Source of the DNA: Acidobacteriota bacterium
GTDB lineage: Bacteria > Acidobacteriota > UBA6911 > RPQK01 > JAJDTT01
Direction of reading: 5' to 3'
Assembly (NCBI GenBank): GCA_965263035.1
Contig: OZ253580.1
Location: 1-64,000, forward strand
Length of the DNA: 64,000 bases
A model generated the notes under the pieces. It worked only from the letters and a program-made list of their open reading frames with translations, was not told the origin of the DNA and made no database searches. Made by a program: the position numbers and the translations under genes. Numbering within the stretch: position 1 is the stretch's first letter; each line of letters begins with the position of its first letter. This document shows, in pieces, positions 12,403 through 55,686 of the stretch.

Positions 12403-14190
12403 TTATTTGCCATCCTCAGGTTCTCCGGCCGTCTTCTTGAGGATGCTCAGAACCAGTCCCTCTGGTCCGTGCCTCCAGGCGTATGTACAGTCCGAGTCTT
12501 CCCGCCCGGCGGTCTCATAGACTGTGTAGGCATGAGGATAGATCTGAGACGCTGGAATGGTTGGTCCAGGCCTCCAAGTCCAACCGTACCAAAGTCCTGA
12601 GGGGCTTTCCTTTTCGCGCCACCGGCCGCTGATCGTTTCCGAGGCGAAGTCCCCCCAGGCAATGTAGGGCATGAAACAAAACCAGCCTCGTTCCCAGGAC
12701 AGCAGAGGAATCTCATCGAACACCAGGTCACATCCGGCCGGTGGAGGTCCTGCTTCGCGCAGGGCCGACACCCACTGACGGCACAGTTCGGCCTTCCCGG
12801 GAATGGGAGCGTCCATGTTCGAATTAGAAAAGGCCCGATCGCGCTGAAACACGCTCCAGCAGAGAAAGAGACCCAGCAGTACCAGAAAGGACCAGCGTGT
12901 CAGATCGGTGCGTCGGAGTGGTTCCCAGAGCGAGGCCGCCGCCCAGCCCAGGGCTGCCGTGGCGACACTTAAGTAGTGAGGCGCAGCCGAAGGTACGAAC
13001 AGGGTTGGAACAAACGACAGGAATGCGAGCGCCGTCAAGCCTCCGAGTTGCCGGGCCAGAGACCTGCGCTGTTCGGGCGAAGTCAGACAACAGATCCAGA
13101 TGAGAATCAACGGCAGCAGGATGGCCACGGCGTCCAGTTTCGGTGACATCCACTGCAAATAGGTCAGGATCTTCGAAGCCATCAGATTCAAACTCAGTCC
13201 GAATTCGTAAGTGCCGACACCTTCGGGCAGACCAAACCCCAAGACCCAGAATCGAAGCCCCAGATAAGCGGACAGGAGAACCCAGAAAGGGACAAGCTCG
13301 AAGCAGGTCTGCTTCCGGAAGAACGGGCGAGCCAACCCAAAGAGCCACGAGAACACGGTGACGATTGCAGGCAGCATGACGGCATCTTCCTTGCTCAGGA
13401 AAGCTGCGGCCGCCGCTACCCAAGCTCCCAGGCGCCAGTACCGCCCCCAACGGTCCTCGTCTTTTCTGGACCAGCAATAGAGGACGGAGAGCAGACAGAA
13501 GACGAACCCGGATTGGCTGATCCCGGAAACCCAGAAGACCTCGTAGAAATGAGCCGGATGAAACCAGAACAGGGCCGCGGCGATCCAAGCCGACCCCGGA
13601 GAAATCCAGCGGAGCGCCAACCAGAACACCAGCAAGCCGTTCACCAGGTGGACCAGGAGATTCGACAGGTGGTGCCCGGTCGGGTCCAGATCGAAGAGGA
13701 GTTGATTGAAGTAGAAGTAGAAATGTTGCGTGAGGGGGCGATACGCGAGCGGATTTCCCATCACGAAGAACTCCCACGGCGAGACCCAGCCGGGGCGACT
13801 GCTGGCCAGCAGCGGGAAATCGTCCTGGGAGAAATAAATGGAAAGTGCTGGAAAGTGGAACCAGGCGTAAAAGAGAGTCAGGACGATCAGGGGAAGGTGG
13901 GGGTTCCGTAGCGCGATGAGTCTGCAACAACGCCGTGTACGGGCAGTTCTCGGAAAATGACAAACTGAGGGCGAGTTAGAAGCCACGTACCAACTGATGC
14001 ATGACGGCATGGATTTGGCGGAGAAGGAAATACCATTGGCTGGCAACGGACAGGCAGCCCGGTTCATCCACGAGTTGTTTGCCCAGGCCGTGACCTCCGA
14101 CTTCGAGGGATCGGTGCGCTGCACCGCGCCAAAGGACGGGAGGTTCTCGGGAGTGGACCTGGAGATGGACGCCGGCAACCGCGTCTTCAC
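12403..14190 (-). CDS. GT-C-fold polytopic membrane glycosyltransferase (true start probably ~13900)
   Basis: QDDF, YRPL, HLSNLLVHLVN, FHPAH, SKE motifs; many TM segments. Confidence 0.65.
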   Translation of the reverse strand: MKTRLPASISRSTPENLPSFGAVQRTDPSKSEVTAWANNSWMNRAACPLPANGISFSAKSMPSCISWYVASNSPSVCHFPRTARTRRCCRLIALRNPHLPLIVLTLFYAWFHFPALSIYFSQDDFPLLASSRPGWVSPWEFFVMGNPLAYRPLTQHFYFYFNQLLFDLDPTGHHLSNLLVHLVNGLLVFWLALRWISPGSAWIAAALFWFHPAHFYEVFWVSGISQSGFVFCLLSVLYCWSRKDEDRWGRYWRLGAWVAAAAAFLSKEDAVMLPAIVTVFSWLFGLARPFFRKQTCFELVPFWVLLSAYLGLRFWVLGFGLPEGVGTYEFGLSLNLMASKILTYLQWMSPKLDAVAILLPLILIWICCLTSPEQRRSLARQLGGLTALAFLSFVPTLFVPSAAPHYLSVATAALGWAAASLWEPLRRTDLTRWSFLVLLGLFLCWSVFQRDRAFSNSNMDAPIPGKAELCRQWVSALREAGPPPAGCDLVFDEIPLLSWERGWFCFMPYIAWGDFASETISGRWREKESPSGLWYGWTWRPGPTIPASQIYPHAYTVYETAGREDSDCTYAWRHGPEGLVLSILKKTAGEPEDGK

Positions 14191-37527: not shown

Positions 37528-38157
37528 GTGCGCCCGACATGGGCTGTATCTAAGGGATGAAAGATCCCAAGGGAGGTGATGGGACCAACCCTAGCCGAAC
37601 CGCAAGGCGTAGCCGCGAGGTGAAGCTGAAGGAAGCGGAAGGCAAACCCACGACCGCAGGAACACGAACCGGCAGTGAGGCCGGGTGCGGGCGGTGAGCT
37701 GGCGAGCAACAGCGAAACCCGAACCCCATCCAGACGCATCAGGTAGAGCCGGGCGGCCCGGGGGGAAAGATGCAGCACCTTACTCGGGGAGATCTCAAGG
37801 GTGAGAGCCCTTGAGAAGTCAGCAGAGGTCGTAGTAGCGAAGAAGCTGGGTAATGCCGGTGGAGCGAAGGACCGAAGGAGTCGGACTGGCCCTATGGTGG
37901 ACTCGTCAGCGGGATCGCAACTACCTCCGAAAACGGGCCGTGGGGAGGCCCCTCGGACCCGGCATGGAAGGCCCACGGGTGGAGCCCGGCAAGCCGGAAG
38001 GGCGGAGATCAAGTCTCAGCGGCGGCGGAAACCGGAAAGAAAGGCCCTGTACGAGGCTCGAAAGAGCCTCGGGTGACTCCAACCGCCGGATACTGAAAAC
38101 GGTATGTCCGGTGGTGTGGGAGGGTGCAGGGGCGCAATCCCCTGCACTCGACCCGAT
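37528..38157 (+). ncRNA. ORF-less group IIC intron
   Basis: 5' GTGCGCCCG; AGAAGTCAGCAGAGG..GTAGTA; short DV with CGC triad (AACCGCCGGATAC...GTCCGGTGGTGT); DVI hairpin; 3' CCCGAT; no RT ORF. Confidence 0.9.
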
Positions 38158-41270: not shown

Positions 41271-42442
41271 ATGTCTAGTTACACCTCCAATTTCGCCGTC
41301 CGTCTATTCTACAGTTATAGCCACAAAGACAGTCATTTTCGCGACTCTATGGAAGACTCGCTTTCATTGCTCAAACAACGTGGATTGCTCGATGACTGGT
41401 CAGATGTAAAGATTTTACCCGGAGGAAAGATCTCGAAAACCAACAGGAAGAAGATGGATAACGCTGACATCATGGTGTTTCTTCTCAGCCGGAACTTCAT
41501 TGCTTCGACCGAGTGCATGAAGGAATGGGAGTACGCAAAGCGTCGTACTAATGAAAAAGTGCTCGTCCGCATTCCAATAATTCTATCCGATTGTGCGTGG
41601 CTAGATTTGCTTGGGAGCGACGACATCAAAGCATTGCCGCGAGATGGCAAACCTATCATGCGATTTGCCGATGACGGTGGCGCCTGGCAACAGGTATATG
41701 AGGGCATTAAAGTCGTTGTAGACAACTTACGAACAACTTTCACTCCAAAACAGGAATTCTTGGAGATAATGGAGAAAACCGATTTCTTGTCCGTACAACA
41801 CATTAGACTACAGGACATTTTTATATTTTTAAGATTGTCCTGTTACGCACCTCATGCAAGGGGGGAACATCCACCAAAAGAACAGGTTGACACCATAGAG
41901 GAGCTATTAAAGAATAAATATACGATAGTCCACGGTGACGAGATGAGTGGCAAGACAGCTCTCGGGCGCTTTCTGTTTCTTTCTCTGACAAAGGAGTTGG
42001 AACCTGTTCTGCATATAGATTTGCAACATCTTCCTAGACGTCCCCTTCGAGAAGAAACCTTTCGCCATACATATCACCGGCAGTTTAATGGCGATTATTC
42101 TCTCTGGAAGCGACAGCCTTCAAAAACCCTTATATTGGACAACTTGCAGCCAACTCCTCAATTAGTTAAATTTATTGTACTCTCCAAGGATTATTTCGAT
42201 AAAATAATAGTTACTTTATCGTCTGATATATTCAACTCGTTTTTCAGGGACGAAGAGCGTCTGGCCGAATTCTATGAAATGGAAATTGAACCGCTTACTC
42301 ACCGACAGCAAGAGACGTTGATTAGAAATAGACTCCGATTGTCGGATCGTAGCGAAACAATCACCGACGGCGTCGTCGATCAAATAGAAAACCGAGTGAA
42401 TTCCATAATCATTTCTAACAGGATCGTACCACGGTATCCATT
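41271..42442 (+). pseudogene. TIR-domain P-loop NTPase, 5' half
   Basis: FYSYSHKD...SRNFIASTECMKEW TIR; GDEMSGKT Walker A; ends at the TSD. Confidence 0.88.
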
Positions 42443-42493
42443 GGGGACTACACAGATGTCTAGGCACGCCCAAATGCGCCAAATCAGAGACTA

Positions 42494-42580
42494 TCAATCT
42501 CGCACGAAAGTGCTAGAATAGGAAGAGGGGAGCACAACAACCAAGGGCCACACCATCACAACTGCAAGGCCATCAGTCAT
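42494..42580 (-). CDS. 28-aa hydrophobic peptide (type I toxin-like)
   Basis: MTDGLAVVMVWPLVVVLPSSYSSTFVRD; SD GGAG; paralog adjacent. Confidence 0.45.
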   Translation of the reverse strand: MTDGLAVVMVWPLVVVLPSSYSSTFVRD

Positions 42581-42604
42581 CTTAAGGCTCCCCTGCCCCA
42601 TTGC

Positions 42605-42688
42605 CTACCGAATCAGGTAGAATGGCGGGGAGGGGAGCATAAAAACCAAGGCCGACACTAACACAATTAGATCAGCGGCATCAGTCAT
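42605..42688 (-). CDS. 27-aa hydrophobic peptide (type I toxin-like)
   Basis: MTDAADLIVLVSALVFMLPSPPFYLIR; SD GGAG; TATAAT upstream. Confidence 0.45.
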   Translation of the reverse strand: MTDAADLIVLVSALVFMLPSPPFYLIR

Positions 42689-42766
42689 CTTAAGGCTCCC
42701 CTCCATCATTTCATTATACTGCTTGCCTGTAAGATCAGACCCACGAAAGTGCTAGAATGGGATGGA

Positions 42767-42857
42767 GGCGGGTTGCCCGACTTTGGATGATGGGGCCTGT
42801 TTCAGAAACAGGTTGGTCCTTATGGCCACGGAGGTTCGAGTCCTCCACCCGCCTCCA
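42767..42857 (+). tRNA. Atypical tRNA, anticodon CAG, long variable arm, U73, CCA encoded
   Basis: GGCGGGT/ACCCGCC acceptor; CCTGT-TTCAGAA-ACAGG; GGAGG-TTCGAGT-CCTCC. Confidence 0.8.
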
Positions 42858-42904
42858 TCAGGGTTATTGTACTGCTTGCCTGTAAGATCAGACCCACGAA
42901 AGTG

Positions 42905-43159
42905 CTACAAGCCCTGTCGGTGAGACCTTTCTTTTGGAGTCAATGCCCATTCGACACCTCTCGGTTGATGGACTTTCCCTTGGTCCCTTAACAGTTTGAG
43001 TTGTCCTGTAGTAATTGCATTGAACCCCTGCTCTGGCAAACCGAGCTTTTCAGTAATTGGACTTAACGACAACCCCTCCTCGTATTTCTCCAATAGATTC
43101 AAGATTCCAGCTTGGATCAAGCGTTCTCCCATCTCTGCAAGCATTCTAGCCTCTGCCAT
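42905..43159 (-). CDS. Small winged-HTH-like protein
   Basis: ILNLL...GLSLSPITEKLG...LKLLRDQGKV...WALT; SD AGGAGG. Confidence 0.6.
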   Translation of the reverse strand: MAEARMLAEMGERLIQAGILNLLEKYEEGLSLSPITEKLGLPEQGFNAITTGQLKLLRDQGKVHQPRGVEWALTPKERSHRQGL

Positions 43160-43185
43160 CTGCTTCCTCCTAAGTAAAATACATC

Positions 43186-43485
43186 ATGGAACTAGGATTC
43201 ACACTTCCACCCACCCGACCCCGCCCAAAGATCCCTCTACAGCAAACGTGTAAGAGGTGTGGGCAACCAGACAAGTTCGACTTCCACGTACCAGATCATC
43301 TTTGGAAGTCTATAGTCCCAAAGTCCCATCGGAACCTTGCTATGTGTCTGTATTGCTTCGATGAGGAGGCCGCCGCTAAAGGTATTCCCTACGCGTGGGC
43401 CATCACTGAGTTTTGTTTTGCAGGCCGCGGAGCCACATTTGGCTTCACGGTGTCACGATACGTTGAAAAGAGGCAACTGATCTAG
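43186..43485 (+). CDS. Small CxxC...CxxC protein
   Basis: CKRC and CLYC motifs. Confidence 0.55.
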   Translation: MELGFTLPPTRPRPKIPLQQTCKRCGQPDKFDFHVPDHLWKSIVPKSHRNLAMCLYCFDEEAAAKGIPYAWAITEFCFAGRGATFGFTVSRYVEKRQLI

Positions 43486-43649
43486 TCGTCACAGTCGCCG
43501 TCCTTTTCTTTGGCCTGGCACTGATTGCAAAGTTCCCCGCTGGTCGGCTTCGCGTTCCTGCTAACGTAGTCGTCCGTTGGCCAGTTGGAACAGTTGCGGC
43601 AATAGTGCCACGTATCGCTCGTTCTTCGCTTTCGGTATTGTCTCGCCAT
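43482..43649 (-). CDS. Small zinc-finger-like protein
   Basis: TWHYCRNCSNWP...GELCNQC; SD GGGG. Confidence 0.6.
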   Translation of the reverse strand: MARQYRKRRTSDTWHYCRNCSNWPTDDYVSRNAKPTSGELCNQCQAKEKDGDCDD

Positions 43650-43766
43650 GCTTTTCACCCCCTTTCTGGCTAGTCGTGATCCCATTAAGGAAGGAATCAG
43701 AGGAGCTTGATAAGAGACTTCAAATATAGCTTGAGTGCACGCCCAAATGCGCCAAATCGGATATTC

Positions 43767-43979
43767 TCAATCGTCAATCTGAGAGGCAGCGAACTCCAAG
43801 ACTCGGGCTAGTTCTCGGGCTTGGTTAGTACTCATATATGAGTAAACATTACCGTTTTCAATCCTCAGTTCCAGTGGGTAAGTCTCTTTGCAATCTTCCT
43901 CGTGAGGGTATCGAAGGCGAACTTCCCTGGTGGGGTACGCGCTCAATGTGATCTCAAATTCTTTCTTACTGTCTATCAT
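43767..43979 (-). CDS. Hypothetical protein (preceded by a 36-aa ORF at 43992-44102)
   Basis: Strong SD GAGGAG; 70 aa. Confidence 0.6.
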   Translation of the reverse strand: MIDSKKEFEITLSAYPTREVRLRYPHEEDCKETYPLELRIENGNVYSYMSTNQARELARVLEFAASQIDD

Positions 43980-44548
43980 GGTCCTCTCCTCCTATAGTCC
44001 CAACATTCGAGCAAACTGCTCCTTGGTCATGCCGTCATAAATGCTGCGTTTCGGCCTGAAGAAGTTATTTAGATGTTGCAGTACAATAATGACAATTGCC
44101 ATTGGTTTACATCTCCATAGTTATTTCATTGGCAACGGCCAGGGGGTTTGGGAGTTCTTCCCCCTGGCCACTAACCTTCCTCAGATATCATACCACAGAA
44201 TCAGGAAAAGGGAACGGCGGGGAAGAGCGGAGGAGTCTGACGGCTCCGAAGCGACACACTACGCATCAGATCCGACACCCGGCTTTCCAGTGTGTCACAG
44301 GCTCCCTTGCGTGCGTGAGCAAGTAGGCAAGGAGTTCATCCTCCGCTCCTCTGTCCTCTTATTGTACTCCGTGTGCAATACGTGGAGGATTTAGGAGGCG
44401 GCGCGGCTCCAACATGGAGCAAAGGGTTTTGTGTAGCCAGTTCAGTTAGGCAAAAACGCGCCGCCCTGGTAAATGCCTACCATGATATTCGATGGAGTGC
44501 AACCTGTGATCTGGATTTCTTGTCACAGGTGGTCTACGATGCGGTGGA

Positions 44549-44652
44549 GGAGGGGTGGCAGAATTGGCATTGCACTCGAATTTAAACTCGTAGGTCAGTA
44601 GGCGTTGCACCACAGCGCACCTGTACGGGTTCAAATCCCGTCCCCTCCTCCA
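44549..44652 (+). tRNA. Degenerate tRNA-like gene; very long variable arm, irregular anticodon arm (loop around TTTAAA)
   Basis: GGAGGGG/CCCCTCC-TCCA acceptor; ACGGG-TTCAAAT-CCCGT T-arm; D-loop TGG. Confidence 0.6.
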
Positions 44653-44662
44653 TTGTGATGTC

Positions 44663-44751
44663 GGGAGCGTGGCCGAGTTGGATTATGGCGCCCGGCTGAA
44701 AACCGGGTGGGTGTAACAGCCCCGCAGGTTCGACACCTGCCGCTCCCGCCA
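44663..44751 (+). tRNA. Atypical tRNA: Ser-like body with GAA (Phe) anticodon
   Basis: GGGAGCG/CGCTCCC-GCCA; CCCGG-CTGAAAA-CCGGG; long variable arm; G73. Confidence 0.85.
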
Positions 44752-44773
44752 TCAATTCATAATACTCGGAGCA

Positions 44774-45223
44774 TCAAAAAAGCCTTTGACTTCGTTGGAG
44801 CAGGCCATCGAGTCTTCCTTTCGGAAGTTTTCCAACAGATTCCCAAATCGTCTCTCCAAAAACCGCCTCATACGATCCTGATTCGATGAACTCAGTAGCG
44901 TTTAGCGAGAGGATGACCCCAACACAGTCCGCCAGTATCAGTGCGGCCAGCGCCTCACGTCGGACCATCCCTCCAAAACCATTACGGGCACCAAAATCAA
45001 TTAGGACTAGTCGATACCCTTTAAGTTCAGGAGAGCTAGACGCGATCGTTTTTATTACTGTAGTGCTGTACACCTCCAGGCTGTTAGGGTCTGTCAACTT
45101 CTGTTGAATCTGCTCGTTTAGACCCGGAACACTGCCGTCTGAACTCATGCAATTAGACCCACTCGACGGCGTACAATTGGCGGTCAGAAGCACAAGAAGC
45201 AAAACGGTGCAGGAGTTTTCCAT
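44774..45223 (-). CDS. Putative lipoprotein
   Basis: LLLVLLTANC lipobox-like; FGARNGFGGMVR motif. Confidence 0.6.
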   Translation of the reverse strand: MENSCTVLLLVLLTANCTPSSGSNCMSSDGSVPGLNEQIQQKLTDPNSLEVYSTTVIKTIASSSPELKGYRLVLIDFGARNGFGGMVRREALAALILADCVGVILSLNATEFIESGSYEAVFGETIWESVGKLPKGRLDGLLQRSQRLF

Positions 45224-45254
45224 AACTCAATCTTTAATTAGAATAGATGTAGAC

Positions 45255-45345
45255 GGCGGGTTGCCCGACTTTTGGATGATGGGGCCTGTTTCAGAAACAG
45301 GTTGGTCCTTGTGGCCACGGAGGTTCGAGTCCTCCACCCGCCGCC
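45255..45345 (+). tRNA. Atypical tRNA, anticodon CAG, long variable arm, G73
   Basis: Near-identical to 42767-42857 except the discriminator; TAGAAT upstream. Confidence 0.8.
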
Positions 45346-45477
45346 CTTGCAATGAAGGAGGATGAGAACCGAAACCGTGCCTTCCCTAACTTCACACTGC
45401 CGACTAGAGCAGCTTAAAAGAAGGCGAGTAACGAACCGAAAAGCTCATCCTCCTCCATCAATTTATAATACTTTGAC

Positions 45478-46755
45478 CTAAAGTCCTGGCACAGAACTGC
45501 ACTTCGATGGAACGATCACAGGATCATCCGATTCCTCAGACTCTCGGTACCTAATAGACCCTCTTTGCGACCAGGGGAGGTTAGGCACATCGGGCAGTTC
45601 AATCTCTGTTCTAGTACCGCCTACGAATCCCTTATCTGGCACCAGTACCCATTCACCACGCCTGTACCAGATGTGAGATCGTGCCCAGACCCGCGAGTAC
45701 CTAATATCGATCGGATCATCTTCGGACATACGTCGGTGGAAAGCGCCGATGTTTGGATTAGGTTTAGAGCTACTAGAAAAGGAACTCGTCCAACTCAGCT
45801 TTCCAGAGAAATTCAACCTGGCCGTAGCGACACATCGACCTGGTCTTTCTTCAAATACCTGGTGGATCTGGTATCCTTGTGCAGTATCAGGCAACTCATA
45901 TCCGCCATCAGAGGTACGGGTTCTACCACCTCCTGCAGGAACCACTGACATCCCATTCTCCAGAGCAGGAGGGATCCCTTGGTAGTCAGCACGTGCTGCC
46001 TTCCCATAGATGCCTTCTATTGTGGTGTCAAAAGCTCCCTTTTCCCGTATTACAATGTCTCTCCAGTCACCAGGGGGACAGTCACCTTCCGTCACGTCTG
46101 GAGGGCCTTCATACAATCGCTCCCACTGTGCTTCATGCCACCGGGCGTTTCCATACTCCGGAGCAAAAGACTCAACTACCATCAAGGTGTAATCGAGCCC
46201 TGTCCCTGACTCTGGGTCGTCCACTTTGACAAGCCAACGCTTGAACTCATCTACAACTCGCCGATTCATGTCGGAGTAGCTTTTGACTCCGACAATGTGC
46301 CCACGGAAGTACTCGGTCCCAGAGAACGAATCAGAGAGAACACGTATACATTCCTCTGTCTTGAGGACTTCATGGGCATCTTGAATGGGCGCTTCGGTGA
46401 GCTCCACTGATTCGCACTCGAGTTCGTCTTTGAATCTAAAGGAGTCTGTTGGGTCCTTGTCTCCATAGATGAGTACAAGAGGGTCGGGAAGAGGAACGAC
46501 CATTGCAGCAAAGAACTTCCCTGACTCGTACTCTGTGACTCTCCACTCATAGATGTGACCACAATGGATCGCATCAAAAAATTCTAGGTTGATGATCTGA
46601 CCGTCGTGGGGAGGCTCTGAAAGACTCACCTCAACGCGACAATCTGGACAGGCGTTAGGGATAAATCCGTATGGAGTGTCGAATCCCCACTTCTCCTCGG
46701 CTTGTACATTCGCCAGGAATGCAGCAAAGGCCATTAGCACAATTACTTTTCTCAT
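45478..46755 (-). CDS. Secreted hypothetical protein
   Basis: MRKVIVLMAFAAFLANVQA signal peptide; SD AGGAGG. Confidence 0.75.
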   Translation of the reverse strand: MRKVIVLMAFAAFLANVQAEEKWGFDTPYGFIPNACPDCRVEVSLSEPPHDGQIINLEFFDAIHCGHIYEWRVTEYESGKFFAAMVVPLPDPLVLIYGDKDPTDSFRFKDELECESVELTEAPIQDAHEVLKTEECIRVLSDSFSGTEYFRGHIVGVKSYSDMNRRVVDEFKRWLVKVDDPESGTGLDYTLMVVESFAPEYGNARWHEAQWERLYEGPPDVTEGDCPPGDWRDIVIREKGAFDTTIEGIYGKAARADYQGIPPALENGMSVVPAGGGRTRTSDGGYELPDTAQGYQIHQVFEERPGRCVATARLNFSGKLSWTSSFSSSSKPNPNIGAFHRRMSEDDPIDIRYSRVWARSHIWYRRGEWVLVPDKGFVGGTRTEIELPDVPNLPWSQRGSIRYRESEESDDPVIVPSKCSSVPGL

Positions 46756-46783
46756 AGCGTACCTCCTTACTCTGTATTCAGAT

Positions 46784-47128
46784 TCAGAATCCCAATGCCT
46801 TGCGGGCGAACTTCTGGATCTGTTTCCACATAATGACCTGATCGAAGTGATGGTCAACGCCGTAATGGTCAGTGTGCGTTATACCATCCTTCAAAATCTC
46901 GCCTGCAATGGGGAGCACGGAGTCGGGAGTCCACCGAGTCAGAACGTCCGAAGGATCGTCCGTCCGGCACAGGTACATCTGTGCTGTAATAACGATCATG
47001 TAGTCGCCTGTGTCGGACGGAATCACGAACAGTGCGTTTGGAGGAGTCTCCACCTCCGTGTTCCAAGGGTGTCCCACACCAAACGCGACGGATAGAATTG
47101 TGATAGCGATTAGCAATGTGTTTCTCAT
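46784..47128 (-). CDS. Secreted hypothetical protein
   Basis: Signal peptide; SD AGGAGG; TATAAT upstream. Confidence 0.65.
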   Translation of the reverse strand: MRNTLLIAITILSVAFGVGHPWNTEVETPPNALFVIPSDTGDYMIVITAQMYLCRTDDPSDVLTRWTPDSVLPIAGEILKDGITHTDHYGVDHHFDQVIMWKQIQKFARKALGF

Positions 47129-47991
47129 AATGCCTCCTTCTCGTACCTTGTGTACGACTTGTTGATTTATGACATCGGTGACCGACGCATTTAGTACACT
47201 ATTATATCACATTATAATAGATGCACAAAGCAAGACGACCAAGGAATTAAGGAAGTATTCGGAAGGGGCGGGACAATAACAAACCGCCCCTTCGAACATC
47301 GCTCCGGGGTCGGGTGAAAGTAGTAAAGCCCTCCCCCATGTGGGAGCGATTACCGGGGTGGCCGAATCAAAGCTACACCTTCATCGTCGTACTGTCCGAC
47401 CCAATTATCGTGGGACAGACGATGTCGGGCGTGCGATCTCAACTGTGCCCGAGTTGCCGGGAGGAGCAGACCCATGAGGCGCGTCTGATCCTGAGCGAGG
47501 GGCAACAACGCTTCCCAGGTAATGCCTCCTGGCGCAGTCATCAAGTGATCGAGGTATCCGGCGTAGGTGCTGAAATTGCGGGGCATCGCGGGTCCCTCCT
47601 GGGGGAGGGTCCCGTATCAGAGGCGTAGCAAGCTGACAACGTATCGGGTAAACTGTCTGACAGGCTGACTTTCCTCCAACACAGGACCAGTTGGCTCAGA
47701 GTCCGTTGGGTGCTGATATCACCTGACGGACTCACCTTTTCAGAGTACTCGGCCTAGCTACAAGGAGCACTCGTTCCCTTGTAAGGGAGCCGGGTCTGAG
47801 TGCTCATCGAACAGCGATGCTGATGGAAGAGTTGCTTATTCACCCGGCGCGGTTCATGAGGCCACGCTTTACCAGGTTGTTTTATTCAGCAAGAGACCCG
47901 ACACAAGCGAATCACTGCCGAGAGCACTGAGGCGGGATTGTGCCGGATAAATAATTGGTAGTCAATAGAAGGGAGAAAATTATCTCAACTC

Positions 47992-48219
47992 TCAGCGGAG
48001 GGTGTCCACCACGGCATTCCGTACCGATTCCATCCAGGTCTCAATCTCCCGCTGGTGTTGGACCAGGGCCTTTACCTTGTCGTCCACAATCCGCAGCCGT
48101 CGGATAATGAGCAGGTGAGAGACGATGATGAGGAATAGGACCAGGAGCAAGGCGAAGGCGTACCAGTGTTGATCGACGATGGGAGGGATTCGGGAGAGTA
48201 ATGAGTTGAGCTGTTCCAT
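47992..48219 (-). CDS. Small single-TM protein
   Basis: FALLLVLFLIIVSHLLII followed by a coiled segment. Confidence 0.55.
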   Translation of the reverse strand: MEQLNSLLSRIPPIVDQHWYAFALLLVLFLIIVSHLLIIRRLRIVDDKVKALVQHQREIETWMESVRNAVVDTLR

Positions 48220-48272
48220 GCTTCAATCTTCCTGCTTTGCCGAAGTATAATACATACATGGCGGAGGGTTGA

Positions 48273-48348
48273 TGGACGCAGCGGGCTTCGGACCCGCGTC
48301 TCCCGGTTTTCAGCCGGGTGTGTTATCCGGGATAAACACTATGCGCCC
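48273..48348 (-). tRNA. Atypical tRNA: G3:U70/A73 (Ala identity) with GAA (Phe) anticodon
   Basis: GGGCGCA/TGCGTCC-A; GTGT/ACAC D-stem; CCCGG-CTGAAAA-CCGGG; GCGGG-TCCGAAG-CCCGC; no encoded CCA. Confidence 0.75.
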
Positions 48349-48475
48349 TCGGTTTGCTTTTCCCTCCGCCATTCTAAACATCTTGCCAAGGTCAGGGGTC
48401 TTTGGTATTTTGGCCTCTCTCGCGCATGATTGTAGGCAATCAATATTATGTGTTATCATGTGTTCTTCAATGATG

Positions 48476-48551
48476 TGGAGCCGGTGCCAGGAATCGAACC
48501 TGGACACGAGGACTTGCTGGGCCCCGGCGTTTGCCATTCCGCCACACCGGC
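48476..48551 (-). tRNA. Atypical tRNA, anticodon AGC, C3-G70, U73, CCA encoded
   Basis: GCCGGTG/CACCGGC-TCCA; GGGGC-CCAGCAA-GTCCT; CCAGG-TTCGATT-CCTGG. Confidence 0.75.
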
Positions 48552-48575
48552 TCCCTTCATTATAGACCGTCAGAG

Positions 48576-48651
48576 GGGAGCCGGTGCCAGGAATTGAACC
48601 TGGAAACAAGGAATTGCGAGTCCCCGACCTTGGCCACTCAGTCACACCGGC
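48576..48651 (-). tRNA. Atypical tRNA, anticodon CGC, C3-G70, U73
   Basis: Same body; GGGGA-CTCGCAA-TTCCT. Confidence 0.75.
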
Positions 48652-48675
48652 TCCCTTCATTATAGACCGTCAGAA

Positions 48676-48751
48676 GGGAGCCGGTGCCAGGAATCGAACC
48701 TGGAAACAAGGAATTGCCACTCCCCGACCTTGGCCACTCGGCCACACCGGC
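48676..48751 (-). tRNA. Atypical tRNA, anticodon GGC, C3-G70, U73
   Basis: Same body; GGGGA-GTGGCAA-TTCCT. Confidence 0.75.
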
Positions 48752-48871
48752 TCCCTTCATTTTAGCACAGGGGGACTATCGTGAAAAAACGACCTCGCAA
48801 GCCCGTGGACATCCTAGCCCTGGCAATGCGCCGGGCTTATGAGCAAACTAGGGGCGGAGAAGCCGAATCCC

Positions 48872-49843
48872 TCAATGAAGATCGTCCGCCTTGTCGGAAA
48901 CCAGATCGAGATACAGCAGACGACGACCGACCATCCCCGCCACGATGTGCTTCATCTGGTCAATAGTATCCAGTTCCCGGATGTTGTGACGCTTGACAAA
49001 CTCGTTGACGTAGCGGTGCAGGTGCTTCACGCTCAAGCTGTGGAACGTCCCCATGTAGCCCCGCTTCAACATCGACCAGAAGGATTCGATGCCATTTGTG
49101 TGTACTATGCCGTCAACGTACTGTTGAGCGCTGTGTCTCACAGACTTGCGATTTGAGCCCATCCAGGCGTAAGCCTGATTCTCGTCCGTGTACGACTTCA
49201 CTCCGAAAGTGGAGCTGTCCAAAATGAACCGGGCAAGAGTCTCCTTTGTCGTGTCCGGCACCACCCTGGCCCTGATTTGATTCGTAGGCCGGTCCTTCAT
49301 GCCTACCACTGCGGTCTTGCCTGAGGGTCCACGACCGGAAAACATCGCCCGTCGCTTCTTGCTCATGTTCCTCCGCTTGCCTCCCATATAAGTCTCGTCG
49401 ATTTCCACGGGACCGATCAGAGCTTCCAAATCGTCCTTGTCCAAGGACTCGCGGAGTCGGTGCAACATGAACCACGCCGTATTCTGCGTCACGTCGATGT
49501 CTCGATGGAGTTTCATCGAGGAGACTCCCTTGAGGTTCGTGACGTAGATGAAAATGGCGTAGGCCCATTTTCGGAGCGGAACCTTGGATCTTGTCAAGGC
49601 CGTGCCAGTGCGGACGCTGAAATACCTACGGCAGTCCGAACACCAGTACGGCTGCGGATATCGGTTTGGCGTCTCATTCGTCTTGACGCTGCCGCAATGA
49701 CCACAGCACCGTTCCTCGGGCCAGAGAACATCCTCAAACCATTTCGTCGCGGCTTCCTCCGTGGGGAACATCTCCGCGAGTTGGATCATTGAGATCCCTT
49801 GTCGGTAGAACTTTCCGGGGGCTTTCCCCTTGCACTTGTCCAT
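48872..49843 (-). CDS. IS1595-family (ISXO2-like) transposase
   Basis: Zn ribbon CGHC/CSDC; VEIDETYMGG, YTDE, HTNGIESFWS. Confidence 0.95.
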   Translation of the reverse strand: MDKCKGKAPGKFYRQGISMIQLAEMFPTEEAATKWFEDVLWPEERCCGHCGSVKTNETPNRYPQPYWCSDCRRYFSVRTGTALTRSKVPLRKWAYAIFIYVTNLKGVSSMKLHRDIDVTQNTAWFMLHRLRESLDKDDLEALIGPVEIDETYMGGKRRNMSKKRRAMFSGRGPSGKTAVVGMKDRPTNQIRARVVPDTTKETLARFILDSSTFGVKSYTDENQAYAWMGSNRKSVRHSAQQYVDGIVHTNGIESFWSMLKRGYMGTFHSLSVKHLHRYVNEFVKRHNIRELDTIDQMKHIVAGMVGRRLLYLDLVSDKADDLH

Positions 49844-50152
49844 GGTGGGCCTTTCGTGGTAGGATTCTCGGGACGCGGCTGAACCGAGGAACCCACGGCC
49901 TGGCAACCTCCGTTTGTAAGTGAGAGACCAGAGCGCAGGACCTGCTTCGAAACCGCGTCCAATTCAATTATATCACACCTTTATAGATGGTGTTTTTATC
50001 AGCCTTACTCTCCTTTAATTCCCTGTAATTATGCCATCGGACCCTGACATTTTTCTGTCATAAATCCTTTGTTTAGTTTAAGGTTACGAAGATTTAATTG
50101 ACCTTTTGTGTGATTGTGTGGTAAAATTATTGGGTTAATGTGAACAGGAGGC

Positions 50153-50332
50153 ATGATGACTAAGAAGGAACTCAACGGATTCACAGAGGCAGTTCGAACG
50201 GTTGTCCGAGAGGAATTAAAGCCGATTGAGCAGCGTCTCGACAAACGCCTTGACGACTTGAAGAAGGAAATCCCTGGTCTAGTTGCGGACGTGATCGCAC
50301 AACGATTTCCAACCCTGTTCCCACACTCATAG
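50153..50332 (+). CDS. Small coiled-coil protein
   Basis: MMTKKELNGFTEAVRTVVREELKP...; SD AGGAGG; paralog of 50427. Confidence 0.6.
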   Translation: MMTKKELNGFTEAVRTVVREELKPIEQRLDKRLDDLKKEIPGLVADVIAQRFPTLFPHS

Positions 50333-50426
50333 GCTGCCAGATCAATTAGGAGGAAGGTTACGAAGATTTAATTGACCTTTTGTGTGATTGTGTGGTAAAA
50401 TTATTGGGTTAATGTGAACAGGAGGC

Positions 50427-50705
50427 ATGATGACTAAGGAAGAACTCAACGGTTATGTCAACGCCGTCAGGCTCGTGGTCCAGGAGGAACTTGAGCCCGT
50501 CAAATCTCAGATTACAACCCTGACTCTTCGAATGGGAGATGTGGAACTGAGGTTGGGAGAGGTTGAAGCCAGAATGGGCACGTTGGAGTCTCGCATGGGA
50601 ACGGTCGAGGCCAGAATGGGGACATTGACTCAGAGAATGGGTGATGTTGAGACTAAGGTAGGGGCGTTGACTCAGAGAATGGGTGATGTTGAAGCCAAAT
50701 TGTAG
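50427..50705 (+). CDS. Small heptad-repeat coiled-coil protein
   Basis: (A/S/Q)RMG(T/D)(V/L)E heptads; duplicated 85-bp promoter/RBS block. Confidence 0.65.
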   Translation: MMTKEELNGYVNAVRLVVQEELEPVKSQITTLTLRMGDVELRLGEVEARMGTLESRMGTVEARMGTLTQRMGDVETKVGALTQRMGDVEAKL

Positions 50706-51073
50706 GATGGGGTGATGGAGGAGAACGACTAGACGTAGTTGTAGGGGTAGGTGACTACTGCCCCTCCGGGGGGAGCGATGGAGTTAGTCAAACTACCACT
50801 CCCTCTGTCCCCTCCATCATTTAATTATACTCCCCACGAAAGTGTAGAATGGGATGATGGAGGAGGGAAACCAATCCTGCCGTCCCATGTATTAACACCA
50901 CAATCGGCAGGGCTACCGTTGAGGCACACCCCAAGGCGGTAGGCTGCTCAGCGATAGTGTGTCTTCCACTGGGTCCAGCCATCGCCCTCCTCCATCATGT
51001 GATTGTACTCCCCACGAATGTAAGGCCCAGTTCAATGACCCTGGAGGCGTGCCTAGACATCTGTGTAAGCCCC

Positions 51074-52387
51074 TATCCATTCTACGTACTCTCAATACTC
51101 CAAACCTACGAGGCCTTTATGCCTAGTGAGCTCTCTATTACTTCCTACGGTCACTGTTACTATGTCCTTATTATTGCCAACTTAGTTAAGGCAGGCATAC
51201 CTCGTAGCGACGATCAACTAAATACATGTTTTTACTTTGCAGAACGCTTAGCATTTGAAATTTATCGGATTGCAAGGAAATCCAACTCGGGGTCGTTGGA
51301 TTTTGACAAGTTTGTGGCGGACTACAGAAATCAATATATAATTTCGCGATCGGTCCTGAGTAGGTTGATGCATCCCGATTTTGGAATCATCAATACAGAA
51401 GGTCAATTCAAAACAGCGTACATGTACTACTTCTTTCTGGGCAGGTTCCTCTCGAAGAACCGCAGCACACACATATCCATAATTGAGAATATGTGTGAAA
51501 ATAGCCACGTGACTTCGAACCACCTGACGCTTCTTTTCGTTATTCATCATACTGATGATAGACAAATAATTGATGACATATTGCTTAGGACAATGTGCAC
51601 ACTGGACACTGTGCAACCCGCGGTTCTAGATCGAACGGAAACTCGGAGATTCAAGGATATCATTGCCGGGCTCCCCACAAATATACTCTCCAATGATAGT
51701 GTGGTGAAGGAAAGGAAAAGACAGAGGGATGGTCGCGACTTGACCGAGAAGCAAGACGGGTACGATGGTGATACGGATGGCATCGATCAACAAAGCCTGG
51801 TTAACGACATTTACAAAATCTTTAAAAATAACGAGATTATGGGGCAAATTCTACGAACCAAATACGGAACGTTAAAAAAAGAGACGATTGTGGAAATCAT
51901 CGAGACGATTGCGGACAGTGGGCTACGCCTTGTCAACTTTGTCCTCAAGGATGAAAAGGAAATAGCCGATACCGCCCACTACCTTCATGCGAAATATCCG
52001 AAGGATGATATAAAGAAGATAAAAAACTATCTTCAATTCTTTTCTTTTTTCTGGACGATAGTAAATGTTGAAAAAGTTGCTAGAGCCATAAATGTTCCAG
52101 AGATTATTGAAACGGTCGATTCAGTCGTTACGCGGAAGGGGTCGCCGGCGTACGATCTTATTGGATACTTCAGCCTGCTCGACAGTTCTCCGGAAATCTC
52201 AAGGAAAGTTAATAAACGACTAGGATACCTATTGAACACTCACAAGGACCTGTTTGTTAAGTGGGTGTTGTCAATTAGAACGCAATACTATATGAATACC
52301 CACGATAGTGGGGCATCGATGGAGCAATCGGTCTGTTCGTTGTTAGATATCAAGTATTCCTCAGCCCATCGTTCCTTACGACGGTAA
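51074..52387 (+). pseudogene. TIR-domain NTPase, 3' half
   Basis: Removing the transposon and one TSD gives in-frame NRIVPRYP|FYVLSILQ; 825 aa in total. Confidence 0.88.
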
Positions 52388-52599: not shown

Positions 52600-54337
52600 C
52601 CCAGATTATTCATGGAACATGTTGATAAGAGCTTCCAACCCGGCGTTTTCGTGCGATCGGAGCCCGGTTTCTCTTGAACCTCTGTCGATTCGACTGAATC
52701 GGCTCGAAAACAGGACGATTGAACCAGTCATTAACCGTTTACCGGCCAGGGGGACCGTCACCCGCCGACAGGTTGACTTTCCGGTGAGAAATCCCCACCG
52801 TTTCGGTCCCTTCCACGGGCCCGTTTTCTCCTCCGTCCACTATCCCGGCGCCCAGGACACCCGCGCCAGTCTCTGCCACAACCGCTTCCAGTCCGTCGCC
52901 CCTTGACTGATGACGAAAATCAATCGCCTCCCCTGACGCAGCGCCCGACTCGCCACTCGCAACACCCGCTCGCGAAAACGACGCAGACTCCAGCCCCGAC
53001 GCGTCGCCTGCTCCATCAGCACCCGACCCAGGTGCAGGATCTCGTACCCCAGCAGATTCAGCAGGAACCGGACTTCGTTGTGGGGTCGAACGCCGGCCTC
53101 CGTCCTCGCTTCCGGCTTGGCTTCCGACTTCAGCGGTTGGCCCCGATAGTGCGTCTTGGGCCGGCTCGCGGAGGACAAGGCCGGATCGAGCACGTCCATG
53201 AACTCCCCCATGTGGCCTTCCGCCTTCCCCCGCTTTCGATACTGTGCCAGCAACTCCTGAGCCTCGTATCGTTTCCGGCTCAGGCTCGTCAGCAACCAGA
53301 AATGATCCGGATACAACTCCCCCGGTCGCTCCCGCACCACCAGCACCACCCGGAGCGTCAACTTCAGCGCCTTTTTCCCCAGGTAGCTGGCTCCCGGAAA
53401 AATCTCCCCGTCGATCAGGTCCCCCGTCTCGGCACAACTCGCCACCAACCCGTGGTACATCCGCTGGCGATAGTATCCGTTCCATTCGCTTCCCGGGGGA
53501 TGCCCATGGACCTCGACCGGGAGACCGTCCACGTCCAGGTACATCGTCTTTTTCCGTCTCTTCTTCCGTGGGGTCTTTTTCCCCCGTTTTCGCCGCTGGC
53601 CTTCGATCATCTCGATCCGACGGCACGCCAGCTCCGTCACCGCCTGGTGCAGGACCGGAAGGTTCTCCTCCCGGCTGAGCGTGTCCAGCAGTCGGGACAA
53701 GGTCGGCTGCGACGCCAGCCCCTGGCCCTCCTCCAAGGCCGCCGTGCCCCGACGAGTCCGGCTCGCCACCCGCAAGCTCGGATCCTGACGCAGGCGGTCG
53801 GCGTCGGACTGGTCGCGCCAGCCCTGACCCAGCAGCAGGAGTCGAGTCCGCAGCAGATCCGACAGCGGATAGCGGATCGAACTCGGGTGTCGCGGATCGT
53901 GCAACCGCCCGGTCAACCAGTCGATGAGGCCGCTGCGATCCATCAGCTCCCGCTGCACCAGGGCTCCCGTGTCCGCACTGAGCAACTCGGGGCGGGTCTC
54001 GAGGCGGAGGGATCGGTTGAATGAGGGCCGGATCTGCGGTATCGTCTCAGGCATGGCGTGCTCCGTTCTTTGTGGTTGTTTCTTAGCACTATAATCATAC
54101 CACAAATGACGGGCACGCCGTCTCTTTATGCCGCCCTTGGAGGGGACGAAAACCGTGGAAATGCTTGGGTTTCGGCCCCCCTTGAATCCTGGGGTTAAAC
54201 CGACGTTGAAAACAAATATAGCGTTTCACCCAGGTCGGATCCCATCCGTTTTCTGTGGGTATCCGGTAACCCTCTGATCCGACTCGACATGACGGGCACG
54301 CTTGCTCATTTTATGTTTGCGTGATGAATAATCTGGG
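52600..54337 (-). mobile_element. IS1380-family element; transposase 52840-54054, possibly internally deleted
   Basis: Perfect TIR CCCAGATTATTCA; LSADTG, LASQPTLSR, LDVDG, YRKRGKAE. Confidence 0.85.
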
Positions 54338-54342
54338 ATTAA

Positions 54343-55686
54343 GGGGATTATCTACCAAACTATACAAATCCCCTATCACTTCGGCTTCTTATGGACACGA
54401 ATAGACGGGTCCGGTCGCTTGGCGTTGGCGAACATCCTACGGGCAACTTCCTCCGGTGTGGCATCCAATTTGATGATGCGGGTGACAGGGCGTCCACCTT
54501 TGTTCTTAGGTTTGGGTTTCTTCGCCATTCTCACGTTTCCCGAATGGACATATATCTCCGCTTTTTATTCTCTTTTCGCAAACCGATCAGTGTGTAGACG
54601 TTGGACTTGAGCCGGTTACACGGACCGCATCAATGGGCTGTGGACGGTTACTAGGCTCACGCAATCAAATCCCGGTAGTGTAGGAGCTTCCTGTCCATTC
54701 TCCGGACTATGAAGCCCATCTGTGTGTCCATTTCCCGGATGTTCTGTCTTCCAGCGAACTCCCGAACGTATTTGTGAGTGGGCTTGGACGAGAAGTGATG
54801 GAACGTCCCAACGTATCCCGGCTTGAGCATGCTCCACAGGGACTCGATGCCATTGGTATGAACTTGGCCCTTCACTTACTCTTGGGCGCTATGATTGACC
54901 GAATCGTGGGAGTATTCCTTCAGGCCGATGTAGGCGGGCGAGTCATCCGTGTAGACTTCCGACTCCGGGACCACAGTCTCACGTACGAACTTTACGAACT
55001 TCAGGAGGGTCTTTCCCTTGGGGTTCGGGACCACCTTGGGCGCCACCCGCTTGGTCTGCCGGTCTTTTATCCCGACGACAGCCGTCTTTCCCACGGCCCC
55101 ACGTCCTTCCATCTGGGCTCTCTTGGCCTTTGGCATGTTCTTCCGCTTCCCGCCCATGTAGTTTTCGTCCACTTCGACTGGACCCGGCATAACTGTTGGA
55201 TCACCGAAGAACTCCTCACGGATTCTCTGCATGAGATACCAGGCCGTCTTCTGCGTGATTCCCAGCCCCCTGTGGAGCTTCATCGAAGAGGTGCCCTTCA
55301 GTCCCGTAGTCATCATGTAGATGGCGAGGGCTCACTTCTGGAGGCCGATCTTGCTGGACTGCATGACCATGCCCTTGCGGACGCTGAAGTAACGTCGACA
55401 ATCCCGGCAGTGGTAAGGCATGGGTTTCCGGGACTTCACGGCCTTCGTATTGACTGAGCCGCAATCTGGGCAACATCTCTCGTTGCCCCAACGCTGCTCT
55501 TCAAACCACTTCTCGGCGGCCGTATCGTCGGGAAACATCCGAAGCAACTGGATGATGGTCAACCCTTCTCTATGGGCCTTTCCGGGGGCTTTCTTCGCTG
55601 TTCTCTTTGTTCCTTTCATGTGTAGTATTCGACCAGAATCCACTGACACTTTTCAACGGATTAGTGTAGTATGGTATATAATCTCC
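54343..55686 (-). mobile_element. Second IS1595-family element, frameshifted transposase, essentially no cargo
   Basis: TIRs GGGGATTATCTACCAAACTA / GGAGATTATATACCATACTA; ATTAA remnant of TSD; fragments 55332-55619, 54876-55316, 54657-54875 (VEVDE, YTDD, HTNGIES). Confidence 0.85.

Follow-up and report, generated by a model that had tools for sequence, protein, structure and literature searches.

In RNA-only (type VIII) toxin-antitoxin (TA) systems such as SdsR/RyeA and CreT/CreA a toxic RNA is neutralised by a second RNA, in IS10 the RNA-IN/RNA-OUT pair provides antisense control of the transposase, and engineered tRNA scaffolds are tRNA-shaped RNAs that need not decode. We know of no insertion-sequence-type transposons with batteries of promoter-equipped structured RNAs, and to our knowledge no type I TA modules have been described in Acidobacteriota. 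In the sections of the sources drawn upon here, long-distance 5'-3' sequestration of the Shine-Dalgarno (SD) sequence is described for the hok and aapA/IsoA mRNAs (PMC6733600), and a tRNA array unit is defined as at least 20 tRNA genes at a density of at least 2 per kb (PMC4758250). Here we describe a locus in the first 64,000 nucleotides (the window) of the genome of an Acidobacteriota bacterium, a single contig (OZ253580.1) of 6.2 Mb with 62% GC. In this window a transposon of the IS1595 family (8,631 bp, 42443-51073) carries a recurring layout in which a small RNA is closed by a long terminal helix and lies between a -10 box and an opposing -10-like box.

The non-coding cargo of the transposon comprises about 15 small-RNA cassettes, namely eight tRNA-like units and at least seven other multi-hairpin units (U1, U2, U4, U5, U13, U14 and U15), closed by long terminal helices. 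The units and their boxes are the following.

42511-42519 (+): P1, extended -10 box TGCTAGAAT of the host tRNA-promoter type, putative sense promoter of U1
42527-42593 (+): U1, non-tRNA unit GGGGAGC...GCTCCCC (repeat families D11/D12)
42494-42580 (-): U1as, 28-codon hydrophobic small open reading frame (sORF) with an SD, antisense to U1
42618-42623 (+): P2, TAGAAT, sense box of U2
42629-42704 (+): U2, second GGGGAGC unit, with a 10-bp closing helix and the 3' end ...CCCC-T-CCA (fold z = -3.47)
42605-42688 (-): U2as, 27-codon hydrophobic sORF with an SD, antisense to U2
42713-42720 (-): reverse box AGTATAAT after U2
42750-42758 (+): P3, TGCTAGAAT, putative sense promoter of U3, with TAGAAT at 42753-42758
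42761-42859 (+): U3, 13-bp closing helix (GATGGAGGCGGGT/ACCCGCCTCCATC, 42761-42773/42847-42859) around a type-II tRNA-like gene (42767-42857; anticodon CAG, U73, CCA encoded; called by ARAGORN; Rfam tRNA 44.4 bits; fold z = -4.16)
42866-42873 (-): reverse box AGTACAAT after U3, with TACAAT at 42866-42871
42903-42911 (+): degenerate copy of the sense promoter, TGCTACAAG, with no unit behind it (repeat families D7/D9)
44225-44348 (+): U4, multi-hairpin RNA with a 10-bp closing helix (fold z = -2.86)
44361-44368 (-): reverse box AGTACAAT after U4
44397-44465 (+): U5, two-hairpin RNA with a 9-bp closing helix (fold z = -4.20)
44535-44654 (+): U6, with a TACGAT box (44535-44540) and a tRNA-like gene (44549-44652; Rfam tRNA 39.4 bits; U73-CCA) of aberrant anticodon and variable region, without a normal anticodon arm
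44663-44751 (+): U7, type-II tRNA-like gene, anticodon GAA, G73-CCA (ARAGORN; Rfam 52.9 bits)
44759-44766 (-): reverse box AGTATTAT after U7
45239-45472 (+): U8, with TAGAAT (45239-45244), a CAG tRNA-like gene without CCA (45255-45345) that is a 97% identical copy of that of U3 (family D5), and a 114-nt extension closed by CCTCCTCCATC at 45449-45459
45465-45472 (-): reverse box AGTATTAT after U8, with TATTAT at 45465-45470
48244-48376 (-): U9, with TAGAAT (48371-48376, -), an 11-bp outer helix (48258-48268/48362-48372) and a tRNA-like gene (48273-48348; anticodon GAA, G3:U70, A73; Rfam tRNA 50.6 bits; fold z = -4.22)
48244-48251 (+): reverse box AGTATAAT of U9
48476-48767 (-): U10-U12, three tandem 100-nt repeats (family D1), each with a -10 box (48559-48564, 48659-48664 and 48759-48767) and a tRNA-like gene (anticodons AGC, CGC and GGC; U73)
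49860-49975 (-): U15, structured leader of the transposase mRNA, with TGATATAAT at 49967-49975 (-), an 8-bp helix (49953-49960/49871-49878) and an opposing TAGGAT at 49860-49865 (+)
50703-50831 (+): U13, with TAGGAT (50703-50708) and a three-hairpin RNA (50714-50818) closed by the helix GATGGAGG/CCTCCATC (fold z = -5.10)
50824-50831 (-): reverse box AGTATAAT after U13
50845-51009 (+): U14, with TAGAAT (50845-50850) and a three-hairpin RNA closed by a perfect 14-bp helix (50854-50867/50985-50998; inverted repeat I3; fold z = -5.29)
51002-51009 (-): reverse box AGTACAAT after U14, with TACAAT at 51003-51008
50821-50982 (-): U14as, 53-codon open reading frame (ORF) with an SD and a hydrophobic core, antisense to U14

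Fold z-scores were -3.4 or lower in 9 of the 12 units folded, U1 being poorly structured (z = -0.52). U15 also has the order box, helix and opposing box, and the frame thus serves the transposase gene too. A second box on the other strand is counted in nine cassettes.

That the layout lies far above chance expectation was confirmed by several counts. A scan for a -10 box, a perfect helix of at least 8 bp and a reverse -10 box found seven layouts in the element, whereas 300 sequences simulated with a first-order Markov model gave 0.05 on average; 14 of them had at least one layout and none had more than 2. The motif CCATCA-N2-6-AT[TA][AG]TAC has seven matches in the 6.2-Mb genome, six of them inside the element, and AGTA[TC][ATC]AT has 9 matches in the element and 148 genome-wide (1.04 vs 0.024 per kb, about 43-fold). 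Moreover, a reverse -10-like box within 22 nt downstream was found for three of the six ARAGORN tRNA calls inside the element and for none of the 57 outside it. The examples which an earlier note on this DNA had pointed out (42753-42871, 45239-45471, 50845-51008 and, inverted, 48247-48376) are all present, the TATAAT of the inverted one lying in fact at 48246-48251, one base off. The same layout is seen in U2, U13 and U15; U4 and U7 show the reverse box only.

The borders of the element, its transposase and the gene that it interrupts are established by the features listed here; a protein-coding cargo discussed below is added to the list.

42443-42470 (+): left terminal inverted repeat, 28 nt, starting with GGGG
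51046-51073 (-): right terminal inverted repeat, 28 nt
42435-42442 and 51074-51081: the two copies of the 8-bp target-site duplication TATCCATT
48872-49843 (-): IS1595-family transposase, Pfam DDE_Tnp_IS1595 (PF12762), E = 1.8e-34
41271-42442 and 51082-52387 (+): split TIR-NTPase gene, Pfam TIR_2, E = 2.2e-12
45478-46755 (-): secreted beta-rich protein of 425 aa, cargo common to three of the four related elements

The arms of the inverted repeat came out of the repeat search (I1) as 31 nt with 90% complementarity and were refined to 28 nt with a GGGG start. The transposase reaches 119 bits against PF12762 (cut-off 27), the catalytic domain of the IS1595 family, and 23.3 bits against Zn_ribbon_IS1595 (PF12760), just below the cut-off of 25.4. 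A target duplication of 8 bp is the figure for the IS1595 family, and 8-bp duplications were also found at three related elements. When the element and one copy of the duplication are excised in silico, a single ORF of 825 codons starting at 41271 is obtained. Both junctions are bridged by contigs from all four DNA runs, with flat depth; neither a joint nor an empty site was seen in the contigs of these runs, and the element is single-copy in the genome. The GC content of the transposon region is about 0.45-0.55, against 0.62 for the genome. The inverted repeats, the duplication, the transposase and the junctions therefore identify the layout as cargo of an IS1595-family transposon, which by its sequence features would be an element of the active type.

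Related transposons occur in two other genomes, and alignments show that the frame design and the RNA folds are conserved in them. In a genome of the same genus (G004) there are two such elements, 7,465 and 4,799 bp long and flanked by separate 8-bp duplications; their transposases share 57% and 79% identity with that of the element described here. They contain GGGGAGC units, a type-II tRNA-like gene with anticodon GAA, a homologue of U9, further odd tRNAs (Gly-GCC and two Ser-AGA) and the secreted protein of 425 aa. A leader unit of the U15 type is absent at the homologous place in the G004 element. The second genome (G324), from another family of the same order, has two 100% identical copies of 1,853 bp at different sites with different 8-bp duplications. 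Each copy consists of two small ORFs, a transposase and, beside the latter, one tRNA-like unit that ends CCTCCATCA-N6-ATTATACTGTTTGCC (also given as CCTCCATCA-N6-ATTATACT). Comparison of U7 with its GAA type-II orthologue in G004 shows compensatory changes at 6 of 29 pairs and no broken pair. Covariation is seen at 4 of 13 pairs of the GGGGAGC unit, and the copies of U1 in G004 are 79-84% identical to it, with covariation in the internal helix. The U9 orthologue, whose insert puts the alignment out of register, is left out of these pair counts.

The flank motif is present in 2 of the 76 genomes of the order, and the samples of the class and the phylum contained no further true element. Pattern matches in G425, G444 and G494 were rejected as chance, lying inside coding-looking sequence with no tRNA-like RNA, and a match in G527 was recognised as the promoter and SD of an ordinary gene and not an element. 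Among 28 IS1595 loci scanned by ARAGORN, odd tRNAs were found only in the two G004 elements; one further locus (L019) adjoins an ordinary-looking tRNA-Pro. No match to the GGGGAGC-unit pattern was obtained in JGI metagenome or IMG/VR contigs, and a protein-alignment search of the JGI metagenome contigs gave nothing. An alignment-based scan of genome contigs returned the G004 element only, and the single-protein scan nothing. The possibility that an 84-aa ORF of the element and a 136-aa ORF of G324 are related helix-turn-helix proteins was dropped, there being no alignment at E≤100 and no family match.

The sense box has the form (TGn)TAGAAT, which is the host tRNA-promoter type: host tRNA genes have TGC-TAGAAT-like or TGC-TATAAT-like boxes 8-32 nt upstream, and several of these promoters stand only 8-10 nt before the mature 5' end. 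In the element TGnTA[GAT]AAT matches seven times, in every case directed in sense towards a unit or a protein-coding gene, and the sense boxes are, as judged from these motifs, credible promoters. The reverse box is a distinct motif, AGTAyWAT, and eight of its nine copies are found 3-8 nt past the 3' helix foot of a unit, antisense wherever the strand of the tRNA is known. The ninth copy is a lone AGTACAAT box at 44080 (+), 137 nt upstream of U4, with a perfect GC-rich hairpin of 10 bp downstream of it (about 44133-44165).

When the reverse boxes of four elements in three genomes were listed by eye, all 12 read TAnnAT on the antisense strand; T-12, A-11, A-8 and T-7 are kept in every one, and variation is confined to the two positions most tolerated by sigma-70. 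Three of the 12, all in G004, lie 7-15 nt from the helix foot. Transcription by sigma-70 usually starts 7 nt from the -10 box, and under this rule the predicted starts of both boxes fall at their own helix foot or at most 8 nt inside it. The second box thus seems to behave like a -10 element, and its resemblance to one, together with the spacing of 3-8 nt to the helix foot in most cases, therefore makes convergent transcription plausible. The proposal of the earlier note that each unit gives a sense and an antisense RNA can be retained at the level of the sequence only; U10-U12 have no reverse box.

Six tRNA genes were called in the element by ARAGORN and eight by the Rfam tRNA model, all eight scoring 39.4-52.9 bits, above the gathering score of 29; host tRNAs at other loci score 62-65. 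The best identity of these genes to any host tRNA is 64-73%, the median of the best non-self identity among host tRNAs being 79%. A long variable arm is characteristic of Ser, Leu and Tyr tRNAs, G3:U70 together with A73 of Ala, and A73 of Leu. Anticodons and bodies do not agree with these rules in the element: the type-II bodies have CAG with U73 and GAA with G73, the G3:U70/A73 body has GAA, and the NGC anticodons are placed on bodies that lack G3:U70.

Pairing of the 5' leader with the discriminator and CC(A), to which the earlier note had drawn attention, is indeed found, with six extra pairs at 42767, three, three and six at the three tandem genes and seven, in the predicted fold, at 44549 (U6). 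U7 (44663) and U8 (45255) have one consecutive extra pair each. Host leaders pair with N73-C74(-C75) in the same manner, with at least two pairs in 19 of 34 genes, three in 8 of 34 and none above three; only 5 of 5000 leader permutations reach 19 of 34. One of 56 host tRNA calls with a good acceptor stem reaches four leader pairs, and only U3, U6 and U12, with 6-7 pairs, exceed the host range. The predicted sense start is at or inside the 5' arm, so that a large part of the 'sequestering' leader may be missing from the transcript; under the 7-nt rule, the RNA of U9 would include just three bases of this arm.

Orthologues differ in their identity nucleotides (N73 is G vs A, and G3:U70 is found vs C3/U70), and in the G004 orthologue of U9 a hairpin replaces the anticodon loop. 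It thus seems that selection favours the shape of a tRNA and not charging or decoding. The GAA anticodon stem-loop, which is identical in U7 and U9 (I6) and kept in G004 with a compensatory pair, is not accounted for by selection on shape only. ORFs antisense to the tRNA-like units, leaderless or SD-led, were also listed by eye and were dropped as short, unrelated and non-hydrophobic peptides. Three tRNA-Ser genes of the host (G000:C1 146316, 167900 and 2899049) have in common an AT-rich downstream sequence of about 55 nt, which may be the footprint of an element targeting tRNA-Ser 3' ends.

On the antisense strand the reverse box is followed by (T)GATGG(A/C)GG, and the string AGTAyWAT-N3-5-TGATGGAGG reads as a promoter and an SD; the same string serves the ordinary gene of the unrelated genome G527. 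An ATG stands 2-7 nt after the SD in U2, U1 and U14 and is the start of the ORFs of 27, 28 and 53 codons, respectively. Each of these has a hydrophobic core (the Kyte-Doolittle maxima over 13 residues are 2.9 for U1as, 2.8 for U2as and 2.5 for U14as). A small hydrophobic ORF with an SD was thereby found in 3 of the roughly 15 units. Among the 34 SD-preceded sORFs in the element, U1as and U2as are the two most hydrophobic and U14as is in the top five. The best-conserved 22 nt of the GGGGAGC unit correspond to the SD, the ATG and three codons on the antisense strand. As the SD itself forms an arm of the terminal helix, the GGAGG of TGATGGAGG would pair to the distal CCUCC. Each of the three sORFs is faced by TGCTAGAAT or TAGAAT boxes, the putative promoters of the overlapping RNA. 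A TA reading fits better in the classical type I form, and for the non-tRNA units U1, U2 and U14 only; its toxic-tRNA form is not supported.

We are inclined to suggest, tentatively, that these are transposon-borne, convergently promoted small-RNA cassettes that work as cis-antisense pairs, three of them candidate type I modules, with the tRNA-like members as scaffolds or mimics. Both boxes would fire, each from a start at or a few nt inside its own helix foot, and from each two-box cassette one would then expect a structured sense RNA and, from the other strand, an antisense RNA fully complementary to it. Such a pair could exert cis-antisense control through transcriptional interference and duplex formation, limiting the sense RNA. 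In U1, U2 and U14 it would limit the mRNA of a small hydrophobic peptide, whose SD would be paired to the CCUCC of the far end. The tRNA-like RNAs would be tRNA-shaped scaffolds or mimics selected for their fold and not for decoding, and not toxins restrained through their CCA.

A number of observations weigh against this suggestion. The reverse boxes lack TGn, and in a consensus scan a single one (45465-45470) has a -35-like hexamer, unlike the host promoters, which usually have TGn or TTGnnn; any activity of the reverse boxes is probably lower than that of the sense boxes. A -10 function does not account for the AG that invariably precedes the reverse box (ACT on the sense strand), and no reverse box is found at U10-U12 or at the three tRNAs of the first G004 element. 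Substitutions in 16 closing helices (G.U 11 vs A.C 8) do not decide which strand needs the helix, and the flanks shared within one element could partly reflect recent duplication (D7, 96% identical). The antisense strands of the tRNA-like units have no consistent ORF. Substitutions in U1as and U2as show no third-position excess (8,5,5; 7,7,7; 5,5,8 ...), and among the four copies in all, one G004 copy of the ORF ends early, at codon 12, and the other has a frameshift. The sORFs match no Pfam toxin family (no Pfam match at E≤1), and U14as has no homologue except itself. The coding status of U1as and U2as is doubtful, and for the three ORFs together these comparisons leave equivocal evidence.

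An explanation that we find unlikely, and which nevertheless deserves attention, takes the reverse box for an element of the sense-strand 3' flank, such as an A/U-rich release or processing site, or for a relic of an IS1595 end, with sense RNAs only. Terminal repeats of IS1595 elements of this lineage begin with GGGG-ATTAT(A/G)TAC; read outward they give GTATATAAT-CCCC, which contains TATAAT and resembles ATT(A/G)TACT. In the minimal element of G324 a gap of 6 nt separates the tRNA-like unit from the motif, which, with the far repeat, brackets about 1.06 kb containing the transposase only, the size of a plain insertion sequence (IS). By eye, the motif resembles the element's own repeat over about 14 matched positions with three gaps, and an IS end may therefore be the ancestor of the reverse box. 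The box would not be a working end, since the GGGG tip that defines IS ends is absent from all 12 motifs, and the extended similarity is seen in G324 only. Canonical terminators are few in the element (3 found vs 7.5 expected), and therefore another 3'-end signal would be needed, a role with which the absence of TGn and -35 from the reverse boxes also agrees. However, a consistent hexamer appears only in the antisense reading, the sense strand having TATACT in some boxes and none in ATAATACT, and reverse and sense boxes are spaced alike from the helix foot. More improbable in our view is an ordinary mobile-element tRNA cluster of decaying pseudo-tRNAs, with flanks inherited by tandem duplication and without function. 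Mobile elements with clusters of tRNA genes, odd members among them in some cases, have been described (PMC4758250 and PMC8421152), and the 96% identity of the spacer copies (D7), the loss of CCA in U8 at 97% identity to U3, the degenerate promoter copy at 42903-42911 and the poor structure of U1 could be read in this way. Decay would not be expected to keep the flank motif and helix design across transposases 57-79% identical and in another family of the order, around wholly different RNAs, nor to give compensatory changes in orthologous RNAs. All eight tRNA-like genes are, moreover, at most 73% identical to host tRNAs, in several the anticodon and body do not match, and eight genes in 8.6 kb are below the array definition given in the part of PMC4758250 referred to.

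Two further explanations concern tRNA function itself. We give least credence to the model of the earlier note, in which an antisense RNA, together with pairing of the leader to N73-CCA, restrains toxic (for example mis-decoding) tRNAs until processing, as RNA-only TA pairs. Disagreement between several bodies and anticodons (type-II Ser-like bodies with CAG and GAA, a G3:U70/A73 acceptor with GAA) speaks for such a model, and dual-identity tRNAs of Streptomyces mistranslate and are toxic in E. coli, according to the sections of PMC10404621 used here. The GAA stem-loop shared by U7 and U9 and kept in G004, and the 6-7 extra leader pairs of three units, also speak for it. Against this, leader pairing of the same kind is common in the host, the predicted sense start lies at or inside the 5' arm, N73 and G3:U70 are not kept, the orthologue of U9 has a hairpin for an anticodon loop and U6 is without a normal anticodon arm. 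No synthetase family was matched among the element ORFs submitted (Pfam, 8 element ORFs and the two halves of the split gene; NCBIfam, 10 element ORFs). The seven non-tRNA units share the layout, and some fifteen TA pairs in one transposon would be unparsimonious. It is also very improbable, if slightly less so, that this DDE transposon family holds a toolbox of tRNA-shaped effectors, some with exchanged anticodons that could mis-decode Phe, Leu or Ala codons, and each tied by the convergent-promoter frame to a perfectly complementary antisense, whose mistranslation or mimicry would be switched on when the antisense falls, with a use in addiction, stress or anti-defence. If so, it would amount to a TA principle of RNA against RNA that makes use of tRNAs.

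Regarding the remaining content of the element and its surroundings, the 425-aa protein has a signal peptide and relatives at L005 (about 12770-14030) and L038 (about 10950-12300), and a tblastn match in the first G004 element. A search of 5.8 billion clustered proteins gave 14 at E≤0.001, itself included, none of them informatively named. No Pfam, NCBIfam or PHROG family was matched, and its model (pLDDT 79.7) gave no PDB fold match at E≤0.001; against 401 genomes of the phylum only the host genome (G000) and one weak, unrelated match were returned. At 50080-50705 (+) a 99-nt block of promoter and ribosome-binding site is present in two copies, 98% identical, before ORFs of 59 and 92 aa. The 92-aa ORF has a coiled-coil repeat with a 42-nt period, and the pair has only PHROG matches of unknown function. 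A 36-nt internal copy at 43737-43772, 89% identical to 42464-42499 just inside the left repeat (family D10), may be the trace of an older element boundary.

The split gene, with its TIR domain and P-loop NTPase (nSTAND3 and AAA_14 matches, both under the Pfam cut-offs), is a candidate defence gene; it sits in its own low-GC patch (0.44-0.47). Directly after it there is transposon debris (52840-55595), with a 421-codon ORF at 52840-54105 (-) and an IS1595-type copy at 54660-55595 (-) flagged with one TGA and one TAA. The flag '1 TGA inside' turned out to be the terminal stop in all three flagged IS copies of the host genome that were examined. Domains D1-D4 of a group II intron were identified at 37609-37872 (+), some 5 kb upstream of the transposon, with Rfam scores of 85.5 bits (RF02001) and 43.6 bits (RF01998).

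In full-text literature searches no description of such cassettes, or of a transposon-borne family of tRNA-like genes, was found. If the convergent boxes fire, the locus would offer a compact and reusable natural 'expression frame' of promoter, terminal helix and opposing promoter, with inserts as different as tRNA-like and cloverleaf-like RNAs, the leader of a transposase mRNA and possible mRNAs of type I toxins. The locus would then be a tractable case for cis-antisense control by mobile elements, for the purpose of tRNA mimics with mismatched anticodons and for asking whether Acidobacteriota have type I TA modules. If the boxes are silent, this would still be a new family of transposon-borne tRNA-like genes.

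Compared with hok/Sok and aapA/IsoA, as these are presented in the relevant sections of PMC6733600, U1, U2 and U14 likewise have a small hydrophobic ORF (27-53 codons), a compact putative promoter and SD, the SD-CCUCC pairing and an overlapping RNA from a stronger convergent promoter, here a predicted one; U1 and U2 are moreover tandemly duplicated. They differ from type I loci in having no family match and no codon-level conservation and in the truncation of one relative, and the same promoter and helix frame also encloses tRNA-like RNAs without an ORF. As regards type VIII TA systems, what is seen in the cassettes is the geometry of convergent boxes only. As in IS10, opposing promoter-like boxes flank a structured leader of the transposase mRNA (U15). 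Unlike IS10, the predicted antisense of U15 would start upstream of the ribosome-binding site and not cover the start codon, the transposon family is a different one and the frame is reused about eight more times away from the transposase.

The element resembles the Acidithiobacillus integrative and conjugative element, the mycobacterial plasmid and phage and the cyanobacterial L-arrays, as far as the sections used of PMC4758250 and PMC8421152 describe them, in its clustered tRNA-type genes with encoded CCA on a foreign mobile element. Its eight tRNA-like genes in 8.6 kb, about 0.9 per kb, do not make an array unit. It also differs in that the carrier is a DDE insertion-sequence-type transposon, in the separate putative promoter of each gene, to which an opposing box is added in many, and in the terminal helices over N73-CCA, the mismatch of anticodon and body and the interleaved non-tRNA RNAs in the same frame. 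With tRNAProX of Streptomyces and Kitasatospora (PMC10404621, in the sections used) it has in common the disagreement of anticodon and body and the A34 anticodons, AGC here and AGA in G004; unlike tRNAProX, there is no adjacent synthetase isoform match here, and identity nucleotides are not kept between orthologues.

The last comparison is with RNAs that use the tRNA shape without the need to decode, such as the tRNA-like domain of tmRNA and the mascRNA mimics. The 3' end of the G324 unit aligns with that of tmRNA, with UCA for CCA. The scores are nevertheless too low for either family (tmRNA 17.9-27 vs 47 bits, mascRNA 21 vs 42.5) and there is no mRNA-like domain; Rfam tmRNA gave no match among the units of the window, and the two scores of the G324 unit, 27 and 17.9 bits, are below 47. 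The likeness extends to the tRNA scaffold, in that one orthologue carries an insert in its anticodon loop.

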